A program made the translations under genes and the position numbers. A DNA stretch of 64,000 nucleotides from Nemertoderma westbladi (lineage: Eukaryota; Animalia; Xenacoelomorpha), in NCBI GenBank assembly GCA_032718475.1, contig JAUCBJ010008678.1:57613-121612 (forward strand), in the 5' to 3' direction. Under the pieces are notes generated by a model that did not search any database, was not told where the DNA came from, and saw only the letters and a list, made by a program, of their open reading frames with translations. This document shows positions 6,001 to 63,745 of the stretch, one piece after another. Position 1 is the first letter of the stretch, and each line of letters begins with the position of its first letter.

Positions 6001-6825
6001 ACTACTTCTACCTAAGGTAGATTGCTTCTCGGTCAGCTGACCCGTCATTAGGACTACTTCTACCTAAGGTAGATTCCTTCTCGGACAGCTGACCCGTCAT
6101 TAGGACTACTTCTACCTAAGGTAGATTCCTTCTCGGTCATCTGACCCGTCATTAGGACTACTTCTACCTAAGGTAGATTGCTTCTCGGTCAGCTGACCCG
6201 TCATTAGGACTACTTCTACCTAAGGTAGATTCCTTCTCGGACAGCTGACCCGTCATTAGGACTACTTCTACCTAAGGTAGATTCCTTCTCGGTCAGCTGA
6301 ACCGTCATTAGGACTACTTCTACCTAAGGTAGATTCCTTCTCGGTCAGCTGACCCGTCATTAGGACTACTTCTACCTAAGGTAGATTGCTTCTCGGTCAG
6401 CTGACCCGTCATTAGGACTACTTCTACCTAAGGTAGATTCCTTCTCGGACAGCTGACCCGTCATTAGGACTACTTCTACCTAAGGTAGATTGCTTCTCAG
6501 TCAGCTGACCCGTCATTAGGACTACTTCTACCTAAGGTAGATTCCTTCTCGGTCAGCTGACCCGTCATTAGGACTACTTCTACCTAATGTAGATTCCTTC
6601 TCGGTCAGCTGAACCGTCATTAGGACTACTTCTACCTAATGTAGATTCCTTCTCGGTCAGCTGAACCGTCATTAGGACTACTTCTACCTAAGGTAGATTC
6701 CTTCTCGGTCAGCTGACCCATCATTAGGACTACTTCTACCTAATGTAGATTGCTTGTCGGTCAGCTGACCCGTCATTGGGACTACTTCTACCTAATGTAG
6801 ATTCCTTCTCGGTCAGCTGACCCGT
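1..6825. repeat. 52-bp tandem satellite, ~131 copies, truncated by the window start
   Basis: Unit GTCAGCTGACCCGTCATTAGGACTACTTCTACCTAA(T/G)GTAGATTCCTTCTCG repeats head to tail with point variants and no spacers. It contains the palindrome GTCAGCTGAC and the hairpin TCTACCT-A-AGGTAGA. Confidence 0.98.
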
Positions 6826-15200: not shown

Positions 15201-15585
15201 TAGTGTCTTTTTACATTTCAACAGGTTGGTTCTTCTTTATCCTCTGTCTTCTGTTCTAGTAGCCAATTTATCGACCCCAGCCTGGTGTACCACTGAGGGA
15301 CGCGGTCCTTGTTGACCCGGGCGACGACGGAGCCGGTATTTCTCCTGGAGGGTTCTCATACTCATATCTTTCAGTTGCGGGAGTAAACCGCTTGTGGTCG
15401 CAACTCCTACAAGCGTTTTCTCAGCAGGTCGTCGTTGGTTGATTACCTCCCGCCGACCTTTTCAGCATCTCTAGCCGTTGGTTGATTACCTTCCGCCTAT
15501 CCATGGCCTACAGCCCTGCTGCCGACTGTAGGGGTCCATTTGTTACACCCTGAACCAAGTATGCCTCCTGGGTTAGGGTTAAGGT
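12227..15585 (-). mobile_element. Full-length but mutated RTE-type LINE (APE endonuclease plus RT) with 14-bp TSD
   Basis: APE motifs CIQEHR, GDLNAQ, QLDYIL, SDHRIV (14358-15221) and RT motifs QNGFR, FVDFKKAFDS, GVLQGDTLAP, DFADD (12983-13570). (TAG)n tail at ~12227-12239. TSD TAAGGGTTATTATA at 12213-12226 and 15586-15599. Several stops and frameshifts. Confidence 0.93.
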
Positions 15586-25866: not shown

Positions 25867-26913
25867 GGGCACTACTATGTTATGGGTACCCACTCTTTGA
25901 CCATTTATTTGACAATGTTAATGGCTATTATCTTGAGGTTTTTTGTTTTAGAACATTAATGTCATCTTCTGTTAGACGTTAGCTATTGGGTTTTTTATGG
26001 TAGCTAGTGATTTCTTTTAGGTAGCTACTGTTTTTAAAATTACAAAATCAAATTTTTGGTACCTCATTTTTGATCAATTTTTTGTTCAATTGCACCTTCT
26101 GAAAGAGGTTACCTATTATTTTTTATTAAGGTAGCTAGTGTTTTTAAAGGTAGCTAGTGATCTTAAAATTACAAAATAATATTTTGGACCATGTTAATGG
26201 ATATAATCAAGATGGCTTTTTGTTCTAGAACATAACTTTTTTCTGAGAGAGGTTAGATATTATTTTTTATTATGGTAGCTACCGGTAGTGTTTTTAAAGG
26301 TAGCTTAAAATTACAAAATAAATTTTGTAGTGCCCCTTTTATTTAGACAATTTCCATATTATCATCAATATATTCTCGCAATTAATAAAAATATAAATAA
26401 ATCTAGTAATAAGTAAAATAGGCCTAAATAAGTAAAATAAGTAAAAACTCTATTTTGACATCTGCCTATATTTTGTATAAAATATAAAAATCTAGCTTGT
26501 GAATAATTACTAGCTACACCATGACTCATAAATTATTCCATGCAAATATATAATTGAGAATTAAATTACCAGTATATCTTACATTTACTAGCTAATAAAT
26601 AGTACTAGCTAACACAAAATCAAAAGTACTAGCTATCATCTTACTGTCAGAAGGTCAAATATTTGTTCTAGAAAAAAAACCTCATAATAAAATACATTTT
26701 TACAAGAAAAATCTTAGTAAATTTTTTTTTCAATTTTTCAATTAAAATTTTTTTCACTAGCTAATAAAAAGTACTAGCTAAAACAAAATCAAAATTACTA
26801 GCTACCATCGTACTGGCAGAAAGTTAAATATTTGTTCTAGAACAAAAACCTTATGATAAAAGCCATTTTCATATTAAACAATTTGTTTAAAAAGTGGGTA
26901 CCCATAACATAGT
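25867..26913. repeat. AT-rich imperfect inverted-repeat (foldback-like) element with GGTAGCTAG sub-repeats
   Basis: ACTATGTTATGGGTACCCACT (~25874) is the exact reverse complement of AGTGGGTACCCATAACATAGT (~26893). The left half has GGTAGCTAGTG repeats and the right half has ACTAGCTA repeats. Confidence 0.55.
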
Positions 26914-27641
26914 TATTTATTATTATTATTATTATTTATTTAAATTCGGACTTGCCGACAATAAAAGTTTAAAAATATGGCGCAAACACAAATGACAGAT
27001 ATCGACACAGAAAGTATATCTACACAGATTATCTACACAGAAAGTAGCCCATTAAATAAAATGTGCACAGCACAGCACTATAGTAAAAATTTATATAAAT
27101 TAAAATGCACCATAATATGATCTATTCTGCAATGTTAAAGTATCAAAGTATCTTAGGATCAAGTTGTGTTTTTGGTGAAAACTGAGGCAGTTGGTATACC
27201 GGTACGGGTACACACACATTGTTATAAGAAGATAAAATGTGCACAGCACGAATAAAATCAGTCAGATCAATATGGGTAATATAAGGTAAATAATATGGTC
27301 CGTAATAATCATTGACGGTCTCGGGATGATTGAATCAATAAAATATATTTGCAGCACAACACGCAAACAGGCATCGGACAGATGTTCAAACGACATTAAA
27401 ATAAGACAGGATACGTTTATGCTTAGATATGAAACTTCCGCAGTTGCTGTTGCTGTAGCAGTTTTTAATGAAGTTCATCCCAACAGTTTCACTGATTGTT
27501 AGTGGTTCAGTCTTAGCACGGTTAAAGAGGGAACGTTTACAGTAGGTATAGGTGAGTAGACTGTGCAGACTGGGCATTGGGTAATTGCTTCTGCATTTCG
27601 CGTATGCAGAAGTCAAGCCTACATAGTTTGTGTTCGAGCAG

Positions 27642-30458
27642 CTATTGAACCGCGAGGCTGTGTAATTGTGATTGTAAGAATGGGACTGGGCAGCTAGCGA
27701 CTCTTAGTATGGTACCTATGCACTGTTTGTATACCTCATTGTGTAGAGGGCGGCATCCAAGTAGATTGTAAATGATCTGGTTGTTAACGTAGGGGCCGAC
27801 CAGTAAGAGACTCCGAAGGGCCTTCCGATACTCAATCTCTAATTTGCGGCTTTCGACTTTACTAAGTGATCCCGCCAAGAACCGAACTGAGTGGGTGATG
27901 GATGGTACTCCTATCATGCGCCAAAGAAATCCGACGGTATCACAGTCCAAATGACGAGTAGTCCAGCTGCGGCGATGAAAAATATCGGAAGCACGATAAA
28001 CACACTGGATACACTCCTGAAGGTGGTTGCCATGACCAGTCGGTAATGTGAAGCCAAGGAAGTTCAGTTTCGGGTGAGGCGGGATCAAGGTGCCCCCGAT
28101 ATTCAGAAAAGTAGGAACTGCGAATTTTGAACAGCCGCTTCCAAGGTGGTAGTTCCATCGAGTTTTGCTGTCCTCCACTTCCAGATTTGATTCTTGCAGT
28201 TTGTCGATAACTATACCTGTAATGACCTCAAGGTCAGATACAGATCTTGCACAGATTAGAAGGTCATCTGCGTATGCAACAATTCCCAACCACAGATCGG
28301 TAAGATTTTCTCCAAAACCAGATTCTTTCAGTTTCTCCAACACGCCCTTGGTGTAGAAATTGAACAACATCGGAGATAGCAAAGATCCTTGTTTTAATCC
28401 TCTAATGAGCTTGATTCCCTGGTCGTTAATGAGACCACCAAATTTCAGATGAGCGACAGTTTGCATATAATAAGACAACAAAGCTAAGCATATGTGAGGG
28501 TTGATATAATTCATTAACCTTCTAAAGAGAATACTAAGTTCTACATTGTTAAAAGCCCCCGACATATCTAGTTGACATATGAAGACACTGGTTCCCTTTT
28601 TCCGTTGTGCTTCGAGGAATTCTAGAACACCACTGATTATAACATCTGTCCCGATTTTTCGACGGTATGCTAACTGTGAGCTAGGGATATGTTCAGCAAT
28701 TTGGATGAATTCGTGGAGTAATACAGATTCGAAGATCTTACCGAAAATACTAACAGAGGAGATAGGACGATAAGATTTGCTTAGCAGTGGATCCCTTTCT
28801 TTGCCCTTGTATAAACTTGTTACAATAGTTTTACCGAAACAAGGAGGAACTTCACCTAATTTGAAACACATATTAATGACATCAGCCATAGTTCGACAGA
28901 TCAGATCGCAGTCTAGAAGTAAAAAGTGTTCCACTACAAGCGAGTATGCGTCTGGAGATTTGCCTTTACCTAAACTAGAAATTGCTTTTCTGATTGTTTC
29001 TGGTGAAATAATAGGAAGGGTTGCATTGTTCTGTAAAACTCTGAGGTCATTCACGATCTGATTAATGGACTCATCAAAGGAGGCATCTTGAATATTGTTT
29101 GAGACCAGATCAGATTCAATTGCGATTTGAGCTGCTGGTGGAGGGATACTAGAGCCCTTTGCATTGAAGGTGGACCAAAACTTCCTTGGGTTTGTGTGCA
29201 TATAGCTGGCCTTCTTTCTTATGTTACTGGCAACAATTGATTTAGCCAACCAGTTCCTCATCCTGCGGATAGATCGCCGTGATTCTTTATATGCTTGCCC
29301 GTATATGCAGGAATTACTTTTGTTGTTTTTCAACCACAAATTATGAAGCTGTTTGCAAGTTTTAGATCTGTCGTGTAGTTCAGCCGATCTAATTCTTAGA
29401 TTCTTGGTCTGGCGTCTGACCTTTAATGGGGGCAGGTGGAGAGCGGCACAATTGTTAATTACCATTTGAATTCGTTCAACATACTCAGTTAAAGTAGAAA
29501 CTGTCCAGTTAATATTATATATTATATAGTTGAATGCATTACCCAAGTCCATTAGTTGTTTTGCAATATCTGATTGATACAATTCATGTTGTGCAGGCGT
29601 TACTTTGTTCCAGGCTATCTTGATTGGTGCTGGAATCTGCTTTGTTTTACTTTTGAAGGCAGAGTCAGACCCTTGAAGCGTAAATTCGGCTGTTATAGGC
29701 ACGTGATCGGAGTGGATATTGGAGCTTTCCGTGTACACTGTTCCCTTTTTCAGAAGACTCCTTCCAAGTTCTGAGGTAACTATATGGTCAATGTACGAGT
29801 TCCCGTGCCCCCGAAATGTGATGCAGGGACCAGTGAAAGGTGGGAATGTATCGACTGCAAATAGGTCGTGATTTAGGAGGAAGTTGGATAGTCTGGATCC
29901 TTGTGGTGTAGGTTTGGTTCTAGATGCACGGGGGCCATGGAGCATGCCGAGATCTGAATTGAAGTCTCCTAATATGATTGGAGTAGCATTCTCGTGTATC
30001 CGAACAAAGTTACTCAGACGAGACAAGAATCTATCGTAACTTGAGATGTTATGGGAAGCATCAGGCGCATAGCAGCACAGTACTAAATATTTCTGTTCAT
30101 CATCAGATTCAGCAATAACTCCGAGTATATCTTGTTCGCTCTGGACTGGAAATGTATTTTTGAAGACACCATTTCTTATCCATAGTGACACCCCTCCAGC
30201 ACCTCTCACTCTATTTGTGTCACTCATGAGTTCACTTATAGTGAAATTGCAGCTGAAGCGGTTATCAAGATGTGATAGCAACTCTTTTCCCTCAATAGCA
30301 TCTAGCCAATGCTCCTGAATGGCTAATATATCTAGGTCACTGAGTAGTTGAGTTATTTCGTCTATACTTGAGTTGAACCCATGACAGTTGAAAGATCCCA
30401 CTCTTAAGTTAAAGTCCTGTGTATTAGGTATAGTATGACTCTCAGCCGGTGATGCCAT
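27642..30458 (-). CDS. Retrotransposon ORF2: APE endonuclease plus reverse transcriptase (938 aa, probably prematurely stopped)
   Basis: FNCHGF, IQEHWL, ILGDFNSD, YIDHI, SDHVPI; SYRPIS, QLAYR, LDMSGAFNNV, GLKQGSLLSP, YADDL. Confidence 0.93.
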   Translation of the reverse strand: MASPAESHTIPNTQDFNLRVGSFNCHGFNSSIDEITQLLSDLDILAIQEHWLDAIEGKELLSHLDNRFSCNFTISELMSDTNRVRGAGGVSLWIRNGVFKNTFPVQSEQDILGVIAESDDEQKYLVLCCYAPDASHNISSYDRFLSRLSNFVRIHENATPIILGDFNSDLGMLHGPRASRTKPTPQGSRLSNFLLNHDLFAVDTFPPFTGPCITFRGHGNSYIDHIVTSELGRSLLKKGTVYTESSNIHSDHVPITAEFTLQGSDSAFKSKTKQIPAPIKIAWNKVTPAQHELYQSDIAKQLMDLGNAFNYIIYNINWTVSTLTEYVERIQMVINNCAALHLPPLKVRRQTKNLRIRSAELHDRSKTCKQLHNLWLKNNKSNSCIYGQAYKESRRSIRRMRNWLAKSIVASNIRKKASYMHTNPRKFWSTFNAKGSSIPPPAAQIAIESDLVSNNIQDASFDESINQIVNDLRVLQNNATLPIISPETIRKAISSLGKGKSPDAYSLVVEHFLLLDCDLICRTMADVINMCFKLGEVPPCFGKTIVTSLYKGKERDPLLSKSYRPISSVSIFGKIFESVLLHEFIQIAEHIPSSQLAYRRKIGTDVIISGVLEFLEAQRKKGTSVFICQLDMSGAFNNVELSILFRRLMNYINPHICLALLSYYMQTVAHLKFGGLINDQGIKLIRGLKQGSLLSPMLFNFYTKGVLEKLKESGFGENLTDLWLGIVAYADDLLICARSVSDLEVITGIVIDKLQESNLEVEDSKTRWNYHLGSGCSKFAVPTFLNIGGTLIPPHPKLNFLGFTLPTGHGNHLQECIQCVYRASDIFHRRSWTTRHLDCDTVGFLWRMIGVPSITHSVRFLAGSLSKVESRKLEIEYRKALRSLLLVGPYVNNQIIYNLLGCRPLHNEVYKQCIGTILRVASCPVPFLQSQLHSLAVQ

Positions 30459-30477
30459 TGCGTGTTGTGTTGTGGTG

Positions 30478-33264
30478 TTAAAAATAATTGGGGGATTCTG
30501 AACTCAGGCGTCTTTGGTACCAAACATCCGGATCGTGGAAACGTCCTCTGTCTCCAGTGGCCTGGTGGGACTTTTTTACTGTCCACTCACGACACCTGAG
30601 TCCATCTGGCCAGAAATCATCCTGTAACAGAGATGCCCGCACACCGGCATCAACGGTAACTCTCACTCCTATATAGCCTGAGCGGTGGAAATTTTGAATC
30701 CTCTTAGTGTAGAAGACTGTGATATTTCTTTTGAGTAAGTGTCGGGTTATGTCTTCTCCACGGGATTTGTGATTAGAGCTTGTGACATAAAGGTAGGCAT
30801 ATGAATATTTTGCGGCATCCACACTTGCACTGGTGACTGTTGTATGTTGTGGCTGTTGCCTGTGGTGGTTATCCCTTAAGATGTAGCCAAAATTCATTGT
30901 AGGATAATTAATTATGTTAGGTATGTGGATATGACTGTTACCCGAGTGCCTAGATTTGTTTGGTACATCACGAAGATTGGGTCCATCTTTCTTGCGATCA
31001 GCTGTAGGATTGGTAGAGTAATTAGACTCAGAGTATGGATGCTTGCTAGTATTTGATTTTGAGTGTTGCATAGAGCGTTTGACTGAGCCACTTCCTTTAT
31101 GTGAGGTGCTCTGTGGAGAATAGGAGTGGTGTGCTTTTGATGTTTTCTTGACAGGAATTTCGCTGTGTCTTGTGCGACGCTCATGCTTTTTGACTTGAGG
31201 AGCTTCATCAGGACCACAATCCGGTGAAGAGCCATCCAATGATTCGATCTCACTGAGAGTGGTGTAGTCGGAGTAGAGTGATTCAGGAGCAGTTGGATTA
31301 AGTTCCGATGTGCTCTGTAATGCTTCGAATCTGTTAGTTGTAGTAACTCCACTCATAGTATTGCACCAAGTAGTTCCTCTGGATGTTCTATGAGAGCCAG
31401 TTGTGGTTAGGTGCGATTTAGCAAGTGGTTGTGAGTCTGCTTTTGGATTTGGCAAGTTCATGTTGACACTTGCAGGTTCTGATTGAGGATGTTGTGTTTG
31501 AACACTTGTTAGATCTTCTAATTTGGCCTGAATTACCAGTCTAGCATGCCTTTCTTGATAGAGCTCGTCTTTCAAGTTTGTGAATTCCTGTTTCAGATTC
31601 ACATAGGAATCTTCCATCTTGGCAAGCCTTGATTGCAGGACATCTACTGACTGTAGCAGGTCTAACCGTAATTGGTTGTAGCCATAATCAACACTGGATT
31701 GCTCAGCCAAGATTAGTCGCTTCCTGCATGGTGCAGTAAAGCACCCTTCTTTCATACAATTCATAAGTTCAAAAACATCCAAGGCCTGTTCTTTAACAGA
31801 ATTACGATTTTGAAGCAACAGACTAACAGACTGAGTTGGCTGCATCAGAGTTCTAACATCATGGAAAAGCTTTTCACGCAAGAGGGAAAGTGTGTTTGAG
31901 TTTATACTGACCAATGTTTTCAATGCCTTTCTTTTGGGGTCTTTTAGCAACTTAGTGAGATTATATTCATTGTAAATAGGAAAAGTAGATTTAGTGTGCT
32001 TGTAATTAGAACCGTCAGAGCTCTTTCCCTCCTTAGACGAATCCTCCTGTTTCCCCTTGGGGTTACTGTGACTCAGTTCACTGTGTGTTGAAGGACAAAC
32101 TGAGTGGTTATTAGAGGGCGCTGAGGTTTGTATTCCAGAGAGCGCTGAAAGCCGAGATTGAGGTATCCTGTGTTTGTGTAATAAGTCATAGTCTATTTTT
32201 GTATCTATAATGACTCCTTCCAACCATTTACGCACACATCCTACTTTTATCTGTTGAAATATATCTTTGTTGCAGGTGGCCAAGTATAGAGCATATAAAC
32301 AAATGAATGGGCCACAGTCGTAATGATTAGGTTGGCTTGGGATATCGCGGTAGCGAGTTTCTGTATGCCATGCTGGATTTGCTACACCTTTGACTCGCTG
32401 GATCAGATTTAACAAGTCGCATAAATGGGACTGAATATTGCTGCTATAATCCCTGTTGATTGGACAGAATGAATACAGTTTCTTGTTGACCACTTCAGCT
32501 ATATGGAGTATATAATGACCATTGGCACACTCTGGGAAGAAAATTAATTCATCATTCTCAGGGTCGCAGCTGCTTGTGATATACCTTACTGCAGCAGATA
32601 CATCAAAATTTTCATGATTTAACTTGTAGCAGAGTGAACTATCGATTGAAGAGATGCGAGGGAGATTCCTTTCCAGTATCCAGAAATAGCAATCAATGAT
32701 TCCCGTTGTCACAAATGAGGTTCCTTGCAAGCTGTTCATATCGATACTGCCCTGAGTTATGTTAAATAATGGCTTTGGATTGTCTCGACGAGGTTTAGTG
32801 ATTGCCTTCACAACTTCCGTTTCATTGAAACCAACCTCTACATCAGCATGGAAAATTCCTTCTAGCCATTGGTCACCGTGATCATCCACAATCGGTTCAG
32901 CCCCACTGTGCTCAATGATGTGCTCAGAGTTATGGAGTGGTAAACCGCTCTTGTCGCAGTTAGGGTTTAATGTATACTTCACTGCCGATGAGTTTGGGCC
33001 CACCTTCTGGTAAAAGTCAGTTATTTTCAAAGCCTTACTAGTTGGCTGATGCCCTATTGCTGTATCAAGTGGCATTGAGAAGGAGGGAGCTTCAACGTTC
33101 AGATCATGCTTAAACACATTAACTACTGCACTGTTTGGAGACTTATGTTGATGAGAAGTAGAATTGTAGTTGCTCTTAATGGGAGAAAGGATTTCGGCAT
33201 CAACTTGAGTGCTATCTATGGGAAGGATAGACTCGGCATTGTCATTAATAATCTTACCCTCCAC
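30478..33264 (-). CDS. Retrotransposon ORF1, C-terminal part: Ulp1/C48-like protease domain, coiled coil, RRM-like ORF1 domain
   Basis: IIDCYF..IFFPECANGHYIL..QPNHYDCGPFICLYA (~32200-32760); heptad-like LQSRLAKMEDSYVNLKQEFTNLKDEL; C-terminal YLYVT..VRVTV..DFWPDGLRCREW typical of LINE ORF1 ends. Confidence 0.75.
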   Translation of the reverse strand: MEGKIINDNAESILPIDSTQVDAEILSPIKSNYNSTSHQHKSPNSAVVNVFKHDLNVEAPSFSMPLDTAIGHQPTSKALKITDFYQKVGPNSSAVKYTLNPNCDKSGLPLHNSEHIIEHSGAEPIVDDHGDQWLEGIFHADVEVGFNETEVVKAITKPRRDNPKPLFNITQGSIDMNSLQGTSFVTTGIIDCYFWILERNLPRISSIDSSLCYKLNHENFDVSAAVRYITSSCDPENDELIFFPECANGHYILHIAEVVNKKLYSFCPINRDYSSNIQSHLCDLLNLIQRVKGVANPAWHTETRYRDIPSQPNHYDCGPFICLYALYLATCNKDIFQQIKVGCVRKWLEGVIIDTKIDYDLLHKHRIPQSRLSALSGIQTSAPSNNHSVCPSTHSELSHSNPKGKQEDSSKEGKSSDGSNYKHTKSTFPIYNEYNLTKLLKDPKRKALKTLVSINSNTLSLLREKLFHDVRTLMQPTQSVSLLLQNRNSVKEQALDVFELMNCMKEGCFTAPCRKRLILAEQSSVDYGYNQLRLDLLQSVDVLQSRLAKMEDSYVNLKQEFTNLKDELYQERHARLVIQAKLEDLTSVQTQHPQSEPASVNMNLPNPKADSQPLAKSHLTTTGSHRTSRGTTWCNTMSGVTTTNRFEALQSTSELNPTAPESLYSDYTTLSEIESLDGSSPDCGPDEAPQVKKHERRTRHSEIPVKKTSKAHHSYSPQSTSHKGSGSVKRSMQHSKSNTSKHPYSESNYSTNPTADRKKDGPNLRDVPNKSRHSGNSHIHIPNIINYPTMNFGYILRDNHHRQQPQHTTVTSASVDAAKYSYAYLYVTSSNHKSRGEDITRHLLKRNITVFYTKRIQNFHRSGYIGVRVTVDAGVRASLLQDDFWPDGLRCREWTVKKSHQATGDRGRFHDPDVWYQRRLSSESPNYF

Positions 33265-36200
33265 TTATCGATGCTTCCAGGTTCCATCATCCTGAAGGTC
33301 CATCACAGATATGACAGGGCGAGCAGGATTGGTATTGGCCGATTTCGGAACTACAGATTTGTGATTGGTGTGTGAGTGTGAAGGTTTGATTATATTTGAA
33401 ACTGAGAGGTCGATAAGAGTAGTGCAATTGTTTCCGAATTTACTGTTATTACATGTCCCGTAAATATCGATACCGTTTACATTTGGGACTGAGTTAATAA
33501 TCGGTTTTGAGGTATTGTTATAACATGCCCCGAAATTATCAGTATCATTTGTACCACCAATAGGGTTCTCATTCATAACGGGTTGTGAGGTAATATCAAC
33601 AACATTTACACCTTGGACTGAGTTCACATTAGTAGAGGGGTCTAAAATACTGTTACCACATGTCACAAAATTATCAATACCGTTTCCACTTGGAAGTGAG
33701 TTCACATTAATAACCGGTTTTAAAAAATTGTTATTAAATGTCCCGAAATTATCAATGACATTTACTCTTGGGACTGGTTTCACATTAGTAATGGGTTGTA
33801 AAATATTGTCAATGACATTTACACTTGGAACTGGGTTCACATTAACAATCGGTTTTAAAATATTGTTATGAAAAGTCCCGAAATTATCAATACCATTTCC
33901 ACTTGGGACTGGGTTCACATTAGTAACAGGTTTTGAAATATTGTAAATTGTGTTAAAGCTGGATGGTTGATCAACTTCAGAGATAGATTGAGACATTGCA
34001 CATTTATTGCAACTACAATTGTTATCTACACGGCGGCATCCCTGAACTGGTTTATCCGGGCCTAACCAGCTCGAAACCTCTGTAGGGGGCAGAGGTTCGA
34101 TCTTATTAGCAGAGAGTTTGCCCTGGCTCCTTGTGACTGGCCTTCGGTGTATTCTTCCCTGCCTTTTGACGGTTTTCATGATCTGTTTATCACCTAAATC
34201 CGTTGCTACCACAACAGGTGGGAATATATTGTTCGCACTAGTTGTCTTATTCGTGTCTGTATCATCGTTATCTGAAGTCGGAAGAGCCCCATCAAGTTGG
34301 TTCTCTGTAGGATTCGTATCATTGCAGTCGACACGTTTTAGTTCCAACCCCGAGGATTTGTCCGGGTTGAGTCGAGGAACCGTTCCGTTTTCGGATCGTT
34401 TTAGTTCCGACTCCGAGGATTTGTCCGGGTTGAGTCGAGGAACCGTTCCGTTGTCGGATCGTTTTAGTTCCGACTCCGAGGATTTGTCCGGGTTGAGTCG
34501 AGGAACTGTTCCGTTGTCGGATCGTTTTAGTTCCGACTCCGAGGATTTGTCCGGGTTGAGTCGAGGAACCGTTCCGTTGTCGGATCGTTTTAGTTCCGAC
34601 TCCGAGGATTTGTCCGGGTTGAGTCGAGGAACCGTTCCGTTATCGGATCGTTTTAGTTTCGACTCCGAGGATTTGTCCGGGTTGAGTCGAGGAGCCATTC
34701 CATTTTCGGATCGTTTTAGTTCCGACTCCGAGGATTTGTCCGGGTTGAGTCGAGGAACCGTTCCTTTGTCAGTTCGTTTTAGTTCCGACTCAGAGGATTT
34801 GTCCGGGTTGAGTCGAGGAACCGTTCCGTTGTCGGATCGTTTTAGTTCCGACTCCGAGGATTTGTCCGGGTTGAGTCGAGGAACCGTTCCTTTGTCAGTT
34901 CGTTTTAGTTCCGACTCCGAGGATTTGTCCGGGTTGAGTCGAGGAACCGTTCCGTTGTCGGACCGTTTTAGTTCCGACTCCGAGGATTTGTCCGGGTTGA
35001 GTCGAGGAACCGTTCCGTTGTCGGATCGTTTTAGTTCCGACTCCGAGGATTTGTCCGGGTTGAGTCGAGGAACTGTTCCGTTGTCGGATCGTTTTAGTTC
35101 CGACTCCGAGGATTTGTCCGGGTTGAGTCGAGGAACCGTTCCGTTGTCGGATCGTTTTAGTTCCGACTCCGAGGATTTGTCCGGGTTGAGTCGAGGAACC
35201 GTTCCGTTGTCGGATCGTTTTAGTTTCGACTCCGAGGATTTGTCCGGGTTGAGTCGAGGAGCCATTCCATTTTCGGATCGTTTTAGTTCCGACTCCGAGG
35301 ATTTGTCCGGGTTGAGTCGAGGAACCGTTCCTTTGTCAGTTCGTTTTAGTTCCGACTCCGAGGATTTGTCCGGGTTGAGTCGAGGAACCGTTCCGTTGTC
35401 GGATCGTTTTAGTTCCGACTCCGAGGATTTGTCCGGGTTGAGTCGAGGAACCGTTCCTTTGTCAGTTCGTTTTAGTTCCGACTCCGAGGATTTGTCCGGG
35501 TTGAGTCGAGGAACCGTTCCGTTGTCGGACCGTTTTAGTTCCGACTCCGAGGATTTGTCCGGGTTGAGTCGAGGAACCGTTCCGTTGTCGGATCGTTTTA
35601 GTTCCGACTCCGAGGATTTGTCCGGGTTGAGTCGAGGAACCATTCCATTGTCGGATCGTTTTAGTTCCGACTCCGAGGATTTGTCCGGGTTGAGTCGAGG
35701 AACCGTTCCGTTGTCGGATCGTTTTAGTTCCGACTCCGAGGATTTGTCCGGGTTGAGTCGAGGAACCGTTCCGTTGTCGGATCGTTTTAGTTCCGACTCC
35801 GAGGATTTGACCGGGTTGAGTCGAGGAGCCTTTCCATTTTCGGATCGTTTTAGTTCCGACTCCGAGGATTTGTCCGGGTTGAGTCGAGGAACCGTTCCAT
35901 TGTCGGATCGTTTTAGTTCCGACTCCGAAGATTTGTCCGGGTTGAGTTGAGGAACCGTTCCGTTGTCAGTTCGTTTTAGTTCCGACTCCGAGGATTTGTC
36001 CGGGTTGAGTTGAGGAACCGTTCCGTTGTCGGATCGTTTTAGTTTCGACTCCGAGGATTTGTCCGGGTTGAGTCGAGGAACCGTTCCGTTGTCGGATCGT
36101 TTTAGTTCCGACTCCGAGGATTTGTCCGGGTTGAGTCGAGGAACCGTTCCATTGTCGGATCGTTTTAGTTCCGACTCCGAGGATTTGTCCGGGTTGAGTC

Positions 36201-36531
36201 GAGGAACCGTTCCATTTTCGGATCGTTTTAGTTCCGACTCCGAGGATTTGTCCGGGTTGAGTCGAGGAACCGTTCCATTGTCGGATCGTTTTAGTTCCGA
36301 CTCCGAAGATTTGTCCGGGTTGAGTTGAGGAACCGTTCCGTTGTCAGTTCGTTTTAGTTCCGACTCCGAAGATTTGTCCGGGTTGAGTTGAGGAACCGTT
36401 CCGTTGTCGGATCGTTTTAGTTCCGACTCCGAGGATTTGTCTGGGTTTGAACGAATCCCAGGATGGATGGGTCGATGAAGAACCGGTAGTCGGCTTTTTA
36501 ATTTGACAGGTGTCCTGGCAAGAGACGGCAT
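33265..36531 (-). CDS. Retrotransposon ORF1, N-terminal repetitive part (same frame as 30478-33264, separated by one TAA)
   Basis: Open frame extends to 36807, with a more plausible start at ATG 36531 (MPSLARTP). It contains ~37 copies of NPDKSSESELKRSDNGTVPRL-like repeats and Asn/Val/Pro-rich imperfect repeats. The junction reads CAT CGA TAA GTG GAG. Confidence 0.6.
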   Translation of the reverse strand: MPSLARTPVKLKSRLPVLHRPIHPGIRSNPDKSSESELKRSDNGTVPQLNPDKSSESELKRTDNGTVPQLNPDKSSESELKRSDNGTVPRLNPDKSSESELKRSENGTVPRLNPDKSSESELKRSDNGTVPRLNPDKSSESELKRSDNGTVPRLNPDKSSESKLKRSDNGTVPQLNPDKSSESELKRTDNGTVPQLNPDKSSESELKRSDNGTVPRLNPDKSSESELKRSENGKAPRLNPVKSSESELKRSDNGTVPRLNPDKSSESELKRSDNGTVPRLNPDKSSESELKRSDNGMVPRLNPDKSSESELKRSDNGTVPRLNPDKSSESELKRSDNGTVPRLNPDKSSESELKRTDKGTVPRLNPDKSSESELKRSDNGTVPRLNPDKSSESELKRTDKGTVPRLNPDKSSESELKRSENGMAPRLNPDKSSESKLKRSDNGTVPRLNPDKSSESELKRSDNGTVPRLNPDKSSESELKRSDNGTVPRLNPDKSSESELKRSDNGTVPRLNPDKSSESELKRSDNGTVPRLNPDKSSESELKRTDKGTVPRLNPDKSSESELKRSDNGTVPRLNPDKSSESELKRTDKGTVPRLNPDKSSESELKRSENGMAPRLNPDKSSESKLKRSDNGTVPRLNPDKSSESELKRSDNGTVPRLNPDKSSESELKRSDNGTVPRLNPDKSSESELKRSDNGTVPRLNPDKSSESELKRSENGTVPRLNPDKSSGLELKRVDCNDTNPTENQLDGALPTSDNDDTDTNKTTSANNIFPPVVVATDLGDKQIMKTVKRQGRIHRRPVTRSQGKLSANKIEPLPPTEVSSWLGPDKPVQGCRRVDNNCSCNKCAMSQSISEVDQPSSFNTIYNISKPVTNVNPVPSGNGIDNFGTFHNNILKPIVNVNPVPSVNVIDNILQPITNVKPVPRVNVIDNFGTFNNNFLKPVINVNSLPSGNGIDNFVTCGNSILDPSTNVNSVQGVNVVDITSQPVMNENPIGGTNDTDNFGACYNNTSKPIINSVPNVNGIDIYGTCNNSKFGNNCTTLIDLSVSNIIKPSHSHTNHKSVVPKSANTNPARPVISVMDLQDDGTWKHR
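34335..36450 (-). repeat. Coding minisatellite within ORF1 (unit is a multiple of 3 nt, roughly 35 copies)
   Basis: Plus-strand unit CGTTTTAGTTCCGACTCCGAGGATTTGTCCGGGTTGAGTCGAGGAACCGTTCCGTTGTCGGAT repeats with no frameshifting variants on the ORF1 strand. Confidence 0.95.
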
Positions 36532-37156
36532 TGCATCGGTGGCGATGTGTGGCGATATATTACAGCAGTAATCTGGTAATACAGTCTGACAGTAATACCA
36601 TGTGCATAAAGTACTAGTATGTGCATGATCATGACAAGTGCTAGTATGTACATGATCTTTTAACTTGATGAAATAAGTTCTAGAATAAAAAGTTAAGATT
36701 AAAACCAAGGCGTCCCAAACTATTTGATTGTTAAATTTGCGAGAAATTTCCACTGCGTTTCTGTTTACTATGTAATAGGCGATACTATTGTATGTGTGTG
36801 TACCCATAAACGAATTTTTTCTACTATAGCTAGTTTTTGTATTAGTAATTTTTGTAATAGTATTGTAGTATAATTTTCGCCAATACTGTAGTATTTCAAC
36901 TGCATTTCTTTTATTTAGCTACACTTTATCTATAAACTAAGAAACTAAGATAATGAATACCGGCCTCTAATAAAATTTACACTGTATGCGAGCATCGCGT
37001 CCTGAATATATACTATGTTCTAGAAGTCCTTGAACATACTGAAACCCCCATAAATTTTTCAAAAACAATAATTTTGTGTTGAAAATTTTACAGAAGATAG
37101 CATTCATATCTAGAATCCTTGGGCCAAACTCTTGGACCGAGACCTGCAACCCAAGG

Positions 37157-38747
37157 CGATATCTCCTTTGCAGAAGTGAAGACTGCTGCAAAGAGCATTA
37201 AGACCAATCGTGCCAGTGGAGTAGATGGTGTTCCCCCTGAGGTCTTTAAAATACCTGAGTGTTTAAAGCTCATCTATCCCATCATAGTAGACATGTACCG
37301 AACAACAAGAGTCCCACAAGAAATGAAAACAAATAAGTTGGTGCCTGTTCCCAAGAAGGGCAACCTAACACTCTATGGTTCTTTTCGGGGAATCTCATTG
37401 ATCTCGATTGCTGCAAAGCTATACAATAGGATTCTATTAAATCGCATCAGGGATCCCATTGAGAGACTGCTCCGTGGAAATCAGAATGGGTTCCGTAAAG
37501 GTCGTGGGACCATGGAGCCCATTTTGGCACTTAGAAGGATAATTGAAGAGTTATCAAAAAAGAAAGACAGGCATCTGGCTGTTATCTTTGTTGACTTCTT
37601 CAAGGCCTTTGATTCAGTCTCTCGCTCACGTATGTTCAGCATACTTTCATTATATAGGATTCCTGATGAAATTATTGCAGCAATCAGATCAGTATACGAT
37701 GGTTCGACAACATTTGTGTCTACTGTTGATGGTGACACAGAACCATTTGAAGTGTTATGGGGCGTCCTCCAAGGAGACACACTTGCACCATTCTTGTTCA
37801 TTATTGTGGTTGACTATGTTCTACGCATGTCCTTAGATCATTATAATGATGATGGGGTGATGATAACTCCACCTACTGGCTCCAGAAGTCGAGGAAATCC
37901 TGCCAAGTACCTAACTGATCTAGACTTTGCTGATGACTTAGGAGTACTCTCAGAATCATTAGAGGGAGCCCAACGGCTCCTCAGCTCATTAGAACATGCT
38001 GCTTCTAGTGTTGGTCTTTTTATTAACTCCAGAAAGACCAAAATTCTGACAGTTAACTTTGAAAGTCCTCAGCAAGTCTCTGATCGGATGAGCATAAGCT
38101 CAAAGGATGGTATGCTTGAGCATGTGGACGACTTCTGTTACCTGGGATCATGGATCCGGAAGTCAGGTGAGGACCTTCGAATACGTAAGGGAAAGGCATG
38201 GGCAGCCTTGAATAGGCTTTCCAGGATTTGGAAGTCACCGAGAATTAATCGGAAACTTACGGTCCGATTATTTAGAGCAGCAGTAGTTCCAGTACTCCTC
38301 TACGGGAGTCCATGCTGGGCTCTAACTGCTGAGGACACCAAATCTCTGGATGGCACATTCACAAGAATGCTACGCCGGGTTCATTGTGTCAAGTACAATG
38401 CACACATCTCCAACCAGACACTATATAACATTGGAGGTGTCTCATTGGTTCCCCCAAGCTTGACACTAGAACAAAATCGCCTCAGCTTTGCAGGACATTG
38501 CTTTCGCCGTGAGGACCAGCCAGTGCATAATCTTGTACTTTGGCAGCCTCATGGAGTGAATAAGCATGGTGGACAGCCCATGACTTTCTTGAGACGCATC
38601 TTAAAGGACACTGGCCTTAAAGATGCGGATGATCTAGCAAATGTCATGGGTGATAGGGAGTTGTGGCGGTGCAATTTTGTTGACAAGCCGGCACAGCATT
38701 CTTAAAAATGCAGCTGCAATGCAGCATGCCGATCCTAGTAGTAGTAG
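37157..38747 (+). mobile_element. 5'-truncated RTE-type LINE with intact RT frame, inserted in the 42-bp repeat
   Basis: RT motifs FRGISL, QNGFR, FVDFFKAFDS, GVLQGDTLAP, DFADD, YLGS; stop at 38705; (TAG)n tail at 38736-38747; 12-bp TSD TGCAACCCAAGG (37145-37156, 38748-38759). Confidence 0.92.
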
Positions 38748-39596
38748 TGCAACCCAAGGTTCAATGGGCCAAACTCTTGGACCGAGAACTGCAACCCAAG
38801 GTTCAATGGGCCAAACTCTTGGACCGAGAACTACAACCCAAGGTTCAATGGGCCAAACTCTTGGACCGAGACCTGCAACCCAAGGTTCAATGGGCCAAAC
38901 TCTTGGACCGAGACCTGCAACCCAAGGTTCAATGGGCCAAACTCTTGGACCGAGACCTGCAACCCAAGGTTCAATGGGCCAAACTCTTGGACCGAGACCT
39001 GCAACCCAAGGTTCAATGGGCCAAACTCTTGGACCGAGAACTGCAACCCAAGGTTCAATGGGCCAAACTCTTGGACCGAGACCTGCAACCCAAGGTTCAA
39101 TGGGCCAAACTCTTGGACCGAGAACTGCAACCCAAGGTTCAATGGGCCAAACTCTTGGACCGAGACCTGCACCCCAAGGTTCATTGGGCCAAACTCTTGG
39201 ACCGAGACCTGCAACCCAAGGTTCAATGGGCCAAACTCTTGGACCGAGACCTCCAACCCAAGGTTCAATGGGCCAAACTCTTGGACCGAGAACTGCAACC
39301 CAAGGTTCAATGGGCCAAACTCTTGGACCGAGACCTGCAACCCAAGGTTCAATGGGCCAAACTCTTGGACAGAGACCTGCAACCCAAGGTTCAATGGGCC
39401 AAACTCTTGGACCGAGACCTGCAACCCAAGGTTCAATGGGCCAAACTCTTGGACCGAGACCTGCAACCCAAGGTTCAATGGGCCAAACTCTTGGACCGAG
39501 ACCTGCAACCCAAGGTTCAATGGGCCAAACTCTTGGACCGAGAACTGCAACCCAAGGTTCAATGGGCCAAACTCTTGGACCGAGACCTGCAACCCA
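38748..39596. repeat. 42-bp minisatellite, ~20 copies (one more partial unit at 37120-37156)
   Basis: Unit TGCAACCCAAGGTTCAATGGGCCAAACTCTTGGACCGAGA(C/A)C. Confidence 0.96.
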
Positions 39597-44220: not shown

Positions 44221-44275
44221 CTTAAAAATCACATGAGAATAAATACTGCAATTAGGCCATCATACAGCCTATGAT

Positions 44276-45524
44276 GGGCGCTACTCCTATCTGATACCCG
44301 AAGGTAGGTGTGGGCGCTACTCCTATCTGCTACCCGAAGGTAGGGGTGGGCGCTACTCCTATCTGCTACCCGATGGTAGGGGTGGGCGCTACTCCTACCT
44401 GCTATCCTAAGATCGGGATGGGCGCTACTCCTATCTGCTACCAGAAGGTAGGGGTGGGCGCTACTCCAATCTGCTACCCGAAGGTAGGGGTGGGCTCTAC
44501 TCCTATCTGCTACCCGAAGGTAGGGGTGGGCACTACTCTTATCTGCTACCCGAAGGTAGGGGTGGGCGCTACTCCACTCTGCTACCCGAAGGTAGGGGTG
44601 GCCGCTACTCCTCACTGCTACCCGAAGGTAGGGGTGGGTGCTACTCCTCACTGCCACCCGAAGGTAGGGGTGGGCGCTACTCCACTCTGCTACCCGAAGG
44701 TAGGGGTGGGCGCTACTCCTCTCTGCTACCCGAAGGTAGGGGTGGGCGCTACTCCTATCTGCTACCCGAAGGTAGGGTTGGGCGCTACTCCTACCTACTA
44801 CCCGAGGGTAGGGGTGGGCGTTACTCCTATCTGATACACGAAGGTAGGGGTGGGCGCTACTCCTATCTGCTACCCGAAGGTAGGGGTGGGCGCTACTCCT
44901 ATCTGCTACCCGAAGGTAGGGGTGTTCGCTACTCCTATCTGCTACCCGAAGGTAGGGGTCGACGCTACTTCTATCTGCTACCCGAAGGTAGGGGCCTGCG
45001 CTACTCCTATCTGCTACCCGAAGGTAGGGGTGGGCGCTACTCCTATCTGCTACCCGAAGGTAGGGGTGGGCGCTACTCCTATCTGCTACCCGAGGGTAGG
45101 GGTGGGCGTTACTCCTATATGCTACCCGAAGGTAGGGGTGGGCGCTACTCCTATATGCTACCCGAAGGTAGGGGTGGGCGCTACTCCTATATGCTACCCG
45201 AAGGTAGGGGTGGGCGCTACTTCTATCTGCTACCCTAAGGTCGGGATGGGCGCTACTCCTATCTGATACACGAAGGTAGGGGTGGGCGCTACTCCTATAT
45301 GCTACCCGAAGGTAGGGGTGGGCGCTACTCCTATATGCTACCCGAAGGTAGGGGTGGGCGCTACTCCTATATGCTACCCGAAGGTAGGGATGGGCGCTAC
45401 TTCTATCTGCTACCCTAAGGTCGGGATGGGCGCTACTCCTATCTGCTACACGAAGGTAGGGGTGGGTGCTACTCCTATCTGCTACCCGAAGGTAGGGGTG
45501 GGCGCTACTCCTATCTGTTACCCG
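44276..45524. repeat. Intronic 36-bp minisatellite, ~35 copies
   Basis: Unit GGGCGCTACTCCTATCTGCTACCCGAAGGTAGGGGT, containing the hairpin CTACC-CGAA-GGTAG. Confidence 0.96.
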
Positions 45525-45747
45525 ATAGTATCCATATTTCGCACTGATGAGTCTCTAAACAAGACACATTAGATCTTAACGCACACTTAGCGGTACAACG
45601 GGAACCTGGCTTCTACAGGAGGAATAGAGAAAGGGTTTGATACAGGTTGTCTAAGTACCTCACATTTTCAGGTGGCAATTACCCATACCCGTATAATATA
45701 TTACAAATAATAAATAAGAAAGCCAATATGAGTTAAATAGTTATTAC

Positions 45748-45884
45748 CTCCTTGTTAACTTTTTCTTGTATCCAGTGGAATTTTGGTAACTTTCTTTCAA
45801 GTTCTGTGTGCGTATCAACCTGCATTGCCAGTCGTTTCAGATGCGCGTTCTTCTGAACTGCGGCGATATCTCCAACAGCCAATC
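45748..45884 (-). CDS. TRPA1: TRPA1-like channel, exon encoding the end of S6 and the TRP-like helix
   Basis: tttcag|GA TTG GCT GTT GGA GAT ATC..AAG GAG|gtaata encodes GLAVGDIAAVQKNAHLKRLAMQVDTHTELERKLP, close to TRPA1 GLAVGDIAEVQKHASLKRIAMQV. Confidence 0.93.
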
Positions 45885-48800
45885 CTGAAAAAGAAATAAA
45901 TAAATAAAGGATATCTCCAACAGCCAATCCTGAAAAGAACAAAATAAATAAAGGATATCTCCAACCTGTAAAGAACAAAATAAATAAAGTATATCTCCAC
46001 AGCCAGACCTGTAAAGAACAAAATAAATAATGGATATCTCCAAAGCCAGGCCTGTAAAGAACAAAATAAATAAAGGATATCTCCAAAGCCAGGCCTGTAA
46101 AGAACAAAATAAATAAAGGATATCTCCAACAGCCAATCCTGTAAAGAACAAAATAAATAAAGGATATCTCCAACAGCCAATCCTGAAAAGAACAAAATAA
46201 ATAAAGGATATCTCCACAGCCAGACCTGTAAAGAACAAAATAAATAATGGATATCTCCACAGCCAGACCTGTAAAGAACAAAATAAATAATGGATATCTC
46301 CACAGCCAGACCTGTAAAGAACAAAATAAATAATGGATATCTCCACAGCCAGACCTGTAAAGAACAAAATAAATAATGGATATCTCCACAGCCAGTCCTG
46401 TAAAGAACAAAATAAATAAAGGATATCCCCAACAGCCAATCCTGTAAAGAACAAAATAAATAAAGGATATCTCCACAGCCAGACCTGTAAAGAACAAAAT
46501 AAATAAAGGATATCTCCAAAGCCAGGCCTGTAAAGAACAAAATAAATAAAGGATATCTCCAACAGCCAATCCTGTAAAGAACAAAATAAATAAAGGATAT
46601 CTCCACAGCCAGACCTGTAAAGAACAAAATAAATAATGGATATCTCCACAGCCAGACCTGTAAAGAACAAAATAAATAATGGATATCTCCACAGCCAGAC
46701 CTGTAAAGAACAAAATAAATAAAGGATATCTCCAACAGCCAATCCTGTAAAGAACAAAATAAATAAAGGATATCTCCACAGCCAGACCTGTAAAGAACAA
46801 AATAAATAATGGATATCTCCACAGCCAGTCCTGTAAAGAACAAAATAAATAAAGGATATCTCCAACAGCCAATCCTGTAAAGAACAAAATAAATAAAGGA
46901 TATCTCCAACAGCCAATCCTGAAAATAACAAAATAAATAAAGGATATCTCCAACAGCCAGACCTGTAAAGAACAAAATAAATAATGGATATCTCCACAGC
47001 CAGACCTGTAAAGAACAAAATAAATAAAGGATATCTCCAAAGCCAGACCTGTAAAGAACAAAATAAATAAAGGATATCTCCAACAGCCAATCCTGAAAAG
47101 AACAAAATAAATAAAGGATATCTCCAACCTGTAAAGAACAAAATAAATAAAGGATATCTCCAACAGCCAATCCTGAAAAGAACAAAATAAATAAAGGATA
47201 TCTCCAACAGCCAATCCTGAAAAGAACAAAATAAATAAAGGATATCTCCAACAGCCAGACCTGTAAAGAACAAAATAAATAATGGATATCTCCACAGCCA
47301 GACCTGTAAAGAACAAAATAAATAAAGGATATCTCCAAAGCCAGACCTGTAAAGAACAAAATAAATAAAGGATATCTCCAACAGCCAATCCTGAAAAGAA
47401 CAAAATAAATAAAGGATATCTCCAACCTGTAAAGAACAAAATAAATAAAGGATATCTCCAACAGCCAATCCTGAAAAGAACAAAATAAATAAAGGATATC
47501 TCCAACAGCCAATCCTGAAAAGAACAAAATAAATAAAGGATATCTCCAACCTGTAAAGAACAAAATAAATAAAGTATATCTCCACAGCCAGACCTGTAAA
47601 GAACAAAATAAATAAAGGATATCTCCAACAGCCAATCCTGAAAAGAACAAAATAAATAAAGGATATCTCCACAGCCAGACCTGTAAAGAACAAAATAAAT
47701 AATGGATATCTCCACAGCCAGACCTGTAAAGAACAAAATAAATAATGGATATCTCCACAGCCAGACCTGTAAACAACAAAATAAATAAAGGATATCTCCA
47801 ACAGCCAATCCTGTAAAGAACAAAATAAATAATGGATATCTCCACAGCCAGACCTGTAAAGAACAAAATAAATAAAGGATATCTCCAACCTGTAAAGAAC
47901 AAAATAAATAAAGGATATCTCCAACAGCCAATCCTGAAAAGAACAAAATAAATAAAGGATATCTCCAACCTGTAAAGAACAAAATAAATAAAGTATATCT
48001 CCACAGCCAGACCTGTAAAGAACAAAATAAATAATGGATATCTCCAAAGCCAGGCCTGTAAAGAACAAAATAAATAAAGGATATCTCCAAAGCCAGGCCT
48101 GTAAAGAACAAAATAAATAAAGGATATCTCCAACAGCCAATCCTGTAAAGAACAAAATAAATAAAGGATATCTCCAACAGCCAATCCTGAAAAGAACAAA
48201 ATAAATAAAGGATATCTCCACAGCCAGACCTGTAAAGAACAAAATAAATAATGGATATCTCCACAGCCAGACCTGTAAAGAACAAAATAAATAATGGATA
48301 TCTCCACAGCCAGACCTGTAAAGAACAAAATAAATAATGGATATCTCCACAGCCAGACCTGTAAAGAACAAAATAAATAATGGATATCTCCACAGCCAGT
48401 CCTGTAAAGAACAAAATAAATAAAGGATATCTCCAACAGCCAATCCTGTAAAGAACAAAATAAATAAAGGATATCTCCACAGCCAGACCTGTAAAGAACA
48501 AAATAAATAAAGGATATCTCCAAAGCCAGGCCTGTAAAGAACAAAATAAATAAAGGATATCTCCAACAGCCAATCCTGTAAAGAACAAAATAAATAAAGG
48601 ATATCTCCAACAGCCAATCCTGAAAAGAACAAAATAAATAAAGGATATCTCCACAGCCAGACCTGTAAAGAACAAAATAAATAATGGATATCTCCACAGC
48701 CAGACCTGTAAAGAACAAAATAAATAATGGATATCTCCACAGCCAGACCTGTAAAGAACAAAATAAATAAAGGATATCTCCAACAGCCAATCCTGTAAAG

Positions 48801-62922: not shown

Positions 62923-62987
62923 TAATGTATATGTGAAATATGTGAAATATTGAACTATAATAATAAACAAATCATTATAAAACTAAC

Positions 62988-63484: not shown

Positions 63485-63745
63485 CTAGATAATATATAAT
63501 CTAATGACAACAGAACTACAAATTAACTATAAACGCAAAAAATAACAATAATTTACTGAAGCCTTCCCGCCCGATTCCCGCAAACATTACTTTATATCTA
63601 CATCTTTATATTTGATAAATTTATTTGATAAAATTATCGCTCTATATGACTTTCACAAAAATTATATAGAAATTTATATTCACATATTAAAAATCGATTG
63701 CATTTAATATTAATATTATACCATTTCCTTTAAAATTGTCGGCCT

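Follow-up and report, generated by a model that had tools for sequence, protein, structure and literature searches.

Mobile elements as unrelated as Mutator, Ginger, NeSL and Utopia have Ulp1-like cysteine protease domains, and in the accessible text of PMC2836005, which lists them in Ginger1 and Mutator transposases, a role in transposition via the ubiquitin/SUMO system is still a proposal. According to the available portion of PMC4640811, the NeSL families of nematodes and Utopia-1_TSP consist of a single open reading frame (ORF) with an N-terminal Ulp1-like protease and a restriction-like endonuclease (RLE). Here, we describe a long interspersed nuclear element (LINE) on the minus strand of a 64,000-nt stretch of DNA, called the window below, from Nemertoderma westbladi (assembly GCA_032718475.1, contig JAUCBJ010008678.1, forward-strand positions 57,613-121,612; all coordinates are in window numbering). 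The element encodes an apurinic/apyrimidinic endonuclease (APE) and a reverse transcriptase (RT) in ORF2, and a true Ulp1/SENP homologue of the C48 fold is located in frame within its ORF1. The initial annotation of the window, made from the letters and their translations, had named Ulp1-like domains in NeSL and in DNA transposons, in agreement with the accessible parts of both sources.

As far as the descriptions in these sources extend, the element shares with NeSL and Utopia the combination of a retrotransposon without long terminal repeats (non-LTR) with a Ulp1-like cysteine protease domain upstream of the RT. It differs from them in that ORF1 and ORF2 are separate frames and the APE precedes the RT, in contrast to one ORF with an RLE C-terminal to the RT, and also in that the domain is placed between repeats and a module of coiled coil and RRM-like fold and has a Cys instead of the Asp of the catalytic triad. 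Ginger1 and Mutator-like elements are likewise mobile elements with a pfam02902-type domain, but in the text available that domain is fused to a DDE transposase of the cut-and-paste type, whereas here it is fused to an ORF1 of the RNA-binding type of retrotransposons. Dualen/RandI LINEs encode a Josephin-like cysteine protease (10.1101/2021.04.23.441226; PMC9977147), and Dualen has RNase H and an RLE besides APE and RT (PMC9977147), as stated in the accessible parts of these papers. Dualen/RandI, as portrayed there, resemble the present element in being APE-bearing non-LTR elements with a protease of the type that acts on ubiquitin-family tags, but the fold is Josephin and not C48. As far as is known, Dualen has all of its domains within a single ORF, the protease being no component of an ORF1.

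The ORF1s of the CR1/L2/Jockey group fall into types I-V, and the accessible text of a study of 448 Jockey-superfamily elements describes RRM, CCHC, coiled coil, C-terminal domain (CTD), PHD, esterase and a zinc-finger/leucine-zipper motif (PMC4120745). There are two likenesses to this group as it is presented there, namely an ORF1 with coiled coil and RRM to which an enzymatic or chromatin-reading module is added, with esterase and PHD as precedents, and an ORF2 of about 950 residues that contains APE and RT only. On the other hand, no ORF1 of the 448 elements is described with a protease domain (the main text of PMC4120745 never uses the word 'protease'), and the present element is without a CTD or a Transposase_22 match and has an ORF1 that is several times longer. 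The words 'protease' and 'peptidase' are also absent from the L1 survey PMC5203782. In the literature searched, outside of which lie subscription journals and Repbase Reports, so that an earlier description is possible, we found no report of a C48/Ulp1 domain in a LINE ORF1; it yielded NeSL/Utopia, DNA transposons and papers in which Ulp1 serves as a laboratory reagent, and nothing else. Ulp1-like domains in mobile elements were already known, and what is new in the literature searched is the placement in ORF1 of an APE-type LINE.

The ORF1 frame, as delimited by a stop-to-stop scan and translation, comprises 2017 codons (30478-36531), in which 33 tandem 21-residue repeats are followed by the Ulp1/SENP-like domain, then by a heptad-rich helix and, last, by an RRM-like end, and the first ATG of ORF2 (30456-30458) is 19 nt past the ORF1 stop TAA (30478-30480). 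The long frame of about 2000 residues that the initial annotation had placed upstream of an APE-RT ORF2 is present in the window copy, but it is broken there by a single in-frame TAA at codon 1089 (33265-33267), which that annotation had overlooked.

The Ulp1/SENP-like domain (32167-32784) was recognized by homology search, Foldseek and a sequence search of the PDB. An exhaustive phmmer search of 1.84 billion protein representatives (E <= 1e-3) yielded 34 matches with a best E value of 4.1e-11; PF02902 scored above its cut-off in 31 of them (26-152 bits), and all 31 of these C48 matches map to residues 106-365 of the part of ORF1 that follows the TAA. Identity of the domain to the 31 C48 matches is 18-27%, and the closest match of the domain among the representatives is 31% identical. 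The capture of the domain by the element, as the initial annotation had put it, is plausible, but at this distance it is not recent. The PDB sequence search returned yeast Ulp1 (1euv_A, E 6.2e-5) and SENP1 (E 4e-4). The cellular Ulp1/SENP enzymes (1euv, 1th0, 2iyc, 9gnv) share their fold with the domain, as well as the positions of His, Gln and Cys, and differ from it by an identity of 18-23% and by the replacements of Asp by Cys, of HW by HY and of DS by CP in the element. A profile of the 31 matches from which the window sequence was left out had ORF1 as its sole scorer among the 155 ORFs of the window (E 1.4e-38), a result that is not independent, as the matches were selected by their likeness to the query. 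An AlphaFold (AF2) model of the domain, made with an 18-sequence alignment, reached a pLDDT of 81.6, and Foldseek placed it with SENP2, Ulp1, SENP1 and SENP5 (E about 1e-9, TM 0.66-0.72); as C48 proteins made up the alignment, the fold does not count as evidence separate from the sequence matches. The C48-like domain with GHY and QPNHYDCG motifs that had been noticed in the letters is thus borne out by sequence and fold matches to Ulp1/SENP.

Three of the four active-site residues are kept. A His at codon 1339 (32515-32517) stands opposite the catalytic His of Ulp1 in the pairwise alignment to 1euv_A, and the motif QPNHYDC at codons 1400-1406 (32314-32334) extends from the oxyanion Gln to the catalytic Cys in the alignment of the 31 matches; H1339, Q1400 and C1406 all lie in columns that are invariant in 31/31 C48 matches. 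The fourth residue, codon 1356 (32464-32466), is opposite the Asp of the VDS motif of Ulp1 and is a Cys, so that the reading YSFCP at the usual position of the catalytic Asp, which had been pointed out earlier, holds in both alignments. Among the 31 matches this column contains Asp in 28 cases, Asn in two and Cys in one. The next residue is Pro in the ORF1 domain versus Ser in 28/31 matches, and the HW motif, with Trp in 28/31 matches, has become HY. The departures from the family are clustered (HW..DS to HY..CP), and the domain retains 15 of the 15 listed family positions that are invariant or nearly invariant, which argues for a local remodelling of the Asp site and not for general decay. 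We read this as a long-constrained domain whose third triad position would have been remodelled, and not as a decaying relic; selection may be acting on the changed Asp position.

Because the Asp of the triad is replaced by Cys, catalysis is uncertain, and for the same reason we do not class the domain with the canonical C48 peptidases but regard it as a homologue of the C48 fold whose site is non-canonical. The single match with Cys at the Asp column is P0028, a protein of 902 residues that also has an NHYDCGP motif and has His, Gln and Cys intact; no Pfam family is found in its first approximately 700 residues. To judge from the alignment, it may be a second His-Cys-Gln-Cys variant, and at 25% identity to the ORF1 domain the two are too distant to be called a clade.

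The length of the ORF1 frame exceeds chance. From 30481 to 33264 there is no stop in 928 codons, versus 52 and 84 in the other two frames, and from 33268 to 34368, outside of the repeat array, there is none in 367 codons (P about 5e-11 from base composition), versus 23 and 44. The array itself (34334-36447), which substantiates the tandem repeats of the initial annotation, contains 33.6 copies of a 63-nt unit (TRF, period 63, 95% matches) and is translated into 33 in-frame 21-residue units of NPDKSSESELKRSDNGTVPRL. It should be noted that an open frame across a 63-nt repeat is by itself weak evidence of coding. The variant codon types of the array tend slightly, but not significantly, towards synonymous changes (seven synonymous versus nine nonsynonymous, with 26% synonymous expected). 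Acidic residues account for 18% of the array, basic ones for 20% and hydrophobic ones for 14%, and the N-terminal half of ORF1 as a whole is poor in hydrophobic and rich in charged or polar residues and is likely to be disordered. A repeat scan revealed a second, degenerate repeat region (33594-33948) with periods of 57, 78 and 135 nt and units of the type NVNPVP..IDNFGT, within which a contig of one sequencing run (X3, introduced below) drops 57 nt in frame. A scan of the element proteins for a 2A-like NPGP motif found none.

The ATG at 36529-36531 was assumed as the start of ORF1 in the translation, and the GC content climbs from 0.32 to 0.50 at this point. The frame stays open for a further 129 codons on its 5' side (36532-36918, GC 0.32), with no stop versus 7 and 13 in the other frames (P about 5e-5), and a second in-frame ATG is found at 36805-36807, inside a candidate target-site duplication. 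ORF1 may thus extend a further 92 codons to this second ATG, unless the upstream openness is due to chance, and the start at 36529-36531 is provisional.

Copies of the element are contained in three of six sequencing runs (X1, X2 and X3), which represent two samples and two studies and one of which may be the source of the assembly; contigs of these runs were aligned to 26800-34300. The comparison reveals that the TAA at 33265-33267 is private to some copies and is not a feature of the family. Position 33267 is a C, which turns TAA into GAA (Glu), at the full depth of X2 (87.9/87.9) and of X3 (39.6/39.6), and at none of the depth of X1 (0/139.6). In X3, two contigs cover 30102-33772 without gaps, and 16/16 substitutions were checked, none of which creates a stop. 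The X2 contig 30157-33796 has the changes of X3, with 1 of its 18 substitutions and 12 gap letters outside the frame check. The X1 contig 29741-33020 lacks 6 nt and has another stop, at codon 1224, where 32862 C>A turns GAA into TAA, and a form with a 77-nt deletion (30218-30294) is present in all three runs. At least three near-identical versions that are about 0.4% apart are therefore seen, one of which reads through the stop of the window copy; they may be retrotransposed copies, alleles or segmental copies.

In each of the three runs, one contig spans the start of ORF2 and the C48 region (X1 29741-33020, X2 30157-33796, X3 30102-33020). On 30565-32823 nothing else at least 85% alike was found, the start of ORF2 is joined to nothing else in any contig, and the depth is flat at the value of the spanning contig, which indicates exactly one contig per run in this interval. 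As a single contig spans both parts in 3/3 runs from two samples, the linkage of the C48 domain with ORF2 is not due to chance. Copies of ORF2 without the upstream protease region, which the initial annotation had proposed to look for as a sign of chance juxtaposition, failed to appear within the species among the contigs that cover the junction, and the C48 domain is integral to the ORF1 of this LINE in the copies seen. The contig depth declines from 3' to 5' (573, 442, 302 and 140 in X1; 152 and 88 in X2), which would suit 5'-truncated copies, bearing in mind that contig depth is not copy number. Run X5, which has the same species label, almost lacks cover of the element body, which is not proof of absence.

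Relatives of the whole architecture were sought in several collections. Homologue searches with protein queries from the C48 region (509-1623 residues) and with a profile of the ORF1 end retrieved nothing, and the ESM Atlas gave no usable match to a 927-residue part of ORF1. The one locus returned by a metagenome scan matches in only 25 residues of the QPNHYDCG region and was judged uninformative.

Between the C48 domain and the C-terminus lies a stretch of 61 residues without Pro or Gly (31498-31680; residues 528-588 of the post-TAA part), in which hydrophobic residues occupy 9/12 of the a/d positions in 42-residue windows. The coiled coil announced by the initial annotation thus corresponds to a heptad-rich stretch and is predicted from the heptad pattern. 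The RRM-like C-terminal domain (30580-30804) is delimited by an AF2 model, VIA-align and homologues. The model has the beta-alpha-beta-beta-alpha-beta order of an RRM with a core pLDDT of 70-89, and the top 50 rows of VIA-align are mostly RRMs (Z 7.6-8.7, a range that may reflect the common arrangement alone); the RRM-like ORF1 end that had been suggested from the letters is in line with both results. Foldseek with the ORF1 end gave no match at E <= 0.001, and the ESM Atlas scores of 0.85-0.86 to eukaryote clusters are leads only. The final approximately 110 residues of ORF1 align with P0026, P0012 and P0024 and include an invariant motif F-W-P..C-R.W. P0026 (522 residues) has the RRM-like end, no C48 domain and no Pfam domain, and a heptad-rich helical stretch, judged by eye, lies upstream of the end. 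The ORF1 protein stops about 35 residues past the RRM-like core, and Pfam gives no match of ORF1 to Transposase_22 (PF02994) at E <= 1, unlike an ORF1p of the L1 type with coiled coil, RRM and CTD.

ORF2 (27642-30458) is intact in the window copy and was assigned by Pfam and motifs. It matches Exo_endo_phos (E 2.3e-11, residues 36-258), Exo_endo_phos_2 (E 1.2e-10) and RVT_1 (E 1.6e-27, residues 575-820) and contains the motifs QEH, SDH (265) and YADD (744), and with its N-terminal APE, its RT and its ATG just past the ORF1 stop it is the APE-RT ORF2 of an APE-type LINE that had been annotated downstream of the long frame. About 130 residues follow the RT, with no further Pfam domain at E <= 1 and no sign of an RLE. 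A homologue search with the ORF2 protein gave 26 matches, none of which is more than 31% identical and the best of which by score is 25% identical; the nearest proteins, at 24-27% identity, include one cluster with an entry from Clytia hemisphaerica and one match from Owenia fusiformis. Membership in the CR1/L2/Jockey group would be compatible with an ORF2 of 953 residues that has no domains besides APE and RT and with a tail of simple repeats.

Taken as a whole, we favour, with moderate confidence, the reading that this is an APE+RT LINE with an ORF1 of about 2,000 codons in which a Ulp1/SENP-homologous domain precedes a predicted coiled coil and the RRM-like end, and that the domain probably cuts or binds tags of the SUMO type to the advantage of the element. 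SUMO is central to transposon silencing by piRNAs and heterochromatin. ORF1p would multimerise via its helix and coat the RNA of the element via the RRM-like domain, by analogy with the ORF1p of L1, and would carry the C48 domain and the long, disordered, charged repeat region in the ribonucleoprotein particle (RNP) to chromatin. There, the C48 domain might strip host factors or element proteins of SUMO or of another ubiquitin-like tag, or might sequester that tag, and either action could relieve SUMO-dependent repression. The analogy is drawn from L1 ORF1p and from CR1/L2 ORF1s, in which the available text of PMC4120745 describes esterase and PHD domains as accessory modules.

Several observations weigh against this reading. 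The triad Asp is a Cys in every version seen. The match to Pfam Peptidase_C48 (PF02902) has an E value of 0.0026 and 18.1 bits, which is under the gathering cut-off of 20.7, and it covers only the 31 residues around the catalytic Cys (residues 302-332, profile positions 157-187); in the profile and structure check that the initial annotation had called for, phmmer, the PDB and Foldseek thus returned Ulp1/SENP-type matches, but the Pfam model alone remained below threshold. A stop is present in two of the three versions, at codon 1089 in the window copy and at codon 1224 in the X1 contig. The differences in ORF1 between versions (13 nonsynonymous, one stop/sense and one synonymous codon) give no sign of constraint; they fit copies that drift after insertion and are silent on selection in an active lineage. 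Every match among the 1.84 billion representatives was to a single stretch, either in the C48 part or at the end of ORF1 but never in both, and therefore the architecture is known from one species alone. The element is surrounded by satellites, the link to SUMO-dependent silencing is drawn from general background, and the candidate substrates range from SUMO, NEDD8 and ubiquitin to a viral-type GG site.

The alternative that survives best, and that we regard as possible but unlikely, is that the domain is a catalytically dead passenger, either as a neutral relic of a short-lived family with a low copy number or as a pseudo-enzyme that only binds SUMO. The exchange of Asp for Cys and of the adjacent Ser for Pro, at positions that are each kept in 28/31 matches, would be expected from it, and so would the finding that only near-identical versions are seen, two of three with stops, and that a relative of the same architecture was not found in any of the collections searched. 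Nevertheless, a neutral relic would not retain His, Gln, Cys and the other conserved positions at 18-27% identity to the family, and P0028 is another C48-like protein that has Cys at this place with His, Gln and Cys intact. A SUMO-binding pseudo-enzyme, moreover, would remain functional for the element.

A more far-reaching version of the favoured reading, which is doubtful at present, would be that the RNA-coating ORF1 of an APE-type LINE has taken up a working isopeptidase of the SUMO family, with a non-canonical His-Cys-Gln-Cys site, so that each of its RNPs brings a de-SUMOylase to the target chromatin and disarms SUMO-dependent silencing. If this were true, the element would encode a counter-defence enzyme of a retrotransposon. 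The importance of the finding hinges on the activity of the domain and on its conservation beyond the genome of N. westbladi. With an active domain, the finding would establish that LINEs encode enzymes directed against tag systems of the host, and the known modules of ORF1 would be widened beyond RRM, CCHC, coiled coil, PHD and esterase; with a dead domain, the element would be a curiosity of one genome. If the Asp site is under selection, it would constitute a compact, testable case within one domain.

Adenovirus, poxvirus and African swine fever virus have CE-clan proteases that process polyproteins, and the C48 domain might similarly act in cis on the giant ORF1 product, and perhaps on ORF2p, cutting at Gly-Gly-type sites and freeing the module of coiled coil and RRM from the repeats. 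This is improbable. ORF1 is about four times as long as the 522-residue ORF1-like relative P0026 and is built of separable modules, its single GG (NPIGG/T, codons 992-993) comes after the repeats and ahead of the C48 domain, and NIGG/T is one of the three GG sites of ORF2. However, several GG pairs are expected by chance in about 3,000 residues, according to our estimate, and the sites are unconserved in any relative, the nearest structures are SUMO/NEDD8 isopeptidases and not viral processing enzymes, and the triad lacks its Asp. Finally, a chance juxtaposition or assembly artefact that placed an unrelated Ulp1 gene or transposon fragment upstream of the LINE ORF2, to which the repeat-rich region and, in the window copy, the stop that cuts the repeat part off from what follows in the frame might point, is very improbable. 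It is largely excluded by the independent contigs of two samples that bridge ORF2 start and C48 region and by the 928 stop-free codons, which begin ahead of the C48 domain, include the RRM-like end and stop 19 nt short of the ORF2 ATG.

The candidate full element (26908-36799) has a length of about 9.9 kb if it is bounded by a possible 10-nt target-site duplication, the word TTATGGGTAC at 36800-36809, which is repeated at 26898-26907, 4 nt past a TAA-rich tail. The duplication is a candidate only, because TTATGGGTAC is one of five shared 10-mers. The 3' tail (26908-26947), identified by direct reading of the sequence, is rich in TAA/AAT repeats and was skipped as a repeat in the contig alignment. 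It is preceded by a 3' untranslated region of about 700 nt (26948-27641) with stops in every frame (18, 7 and 8 per frame in 231 codons), the final 176 nt of which fold no better than shuffled RNA (z -0.8). The flank past the tail (26800-26900) is a very abundant repeat with a summed contig depth of about 10,000, versus 150-600 on the LINE, and is represented by dozens of contigs with many loose ends.

The window contains further remnants of retroelements. A second LINE (17683-20496, plus strand) consists of a PHD-finger frame (E 1.4e-7) and, past a single stop, of a partial APE and an RT (RVT_1, 1.5e-32), and corresponds to a CR1/L2-type ORF1 with PHD as described in the accessible text of PMC4120745. 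A third LINE remnant (12983-15236, minus strand) has APE and RT in separate frames. An RT-only fragment on the plus strand (37101-39596; RVT_1, 7.9e-29) has an array of 20 copies of a 42-nt unit on one side (38748-39596) and a single copy of a motif similar to this unit on the other (about 37120-37180).

Satellites and other arrays make up large parts of the window. A 52-nt satellite occupies 1-6825 (131 copies, 94% matches, GC skew about -0.22), and a 43-nt satellite with strong AT skew occupies 45865-62714 (394 copies), where the minus strand reads open over 5676 codons as an artefact of the repeat. The array at 44275-45525 (36 nt, 34.8 copies, GC 0.50) yields a spurious repeated PRY match upon translation. 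An open frame that adjoins the satellite (62983-63522, minus strand) has an Ion_trans match (E 9.1e-10) and is, judging from this match, probably an exon of a host ion-channel gene.

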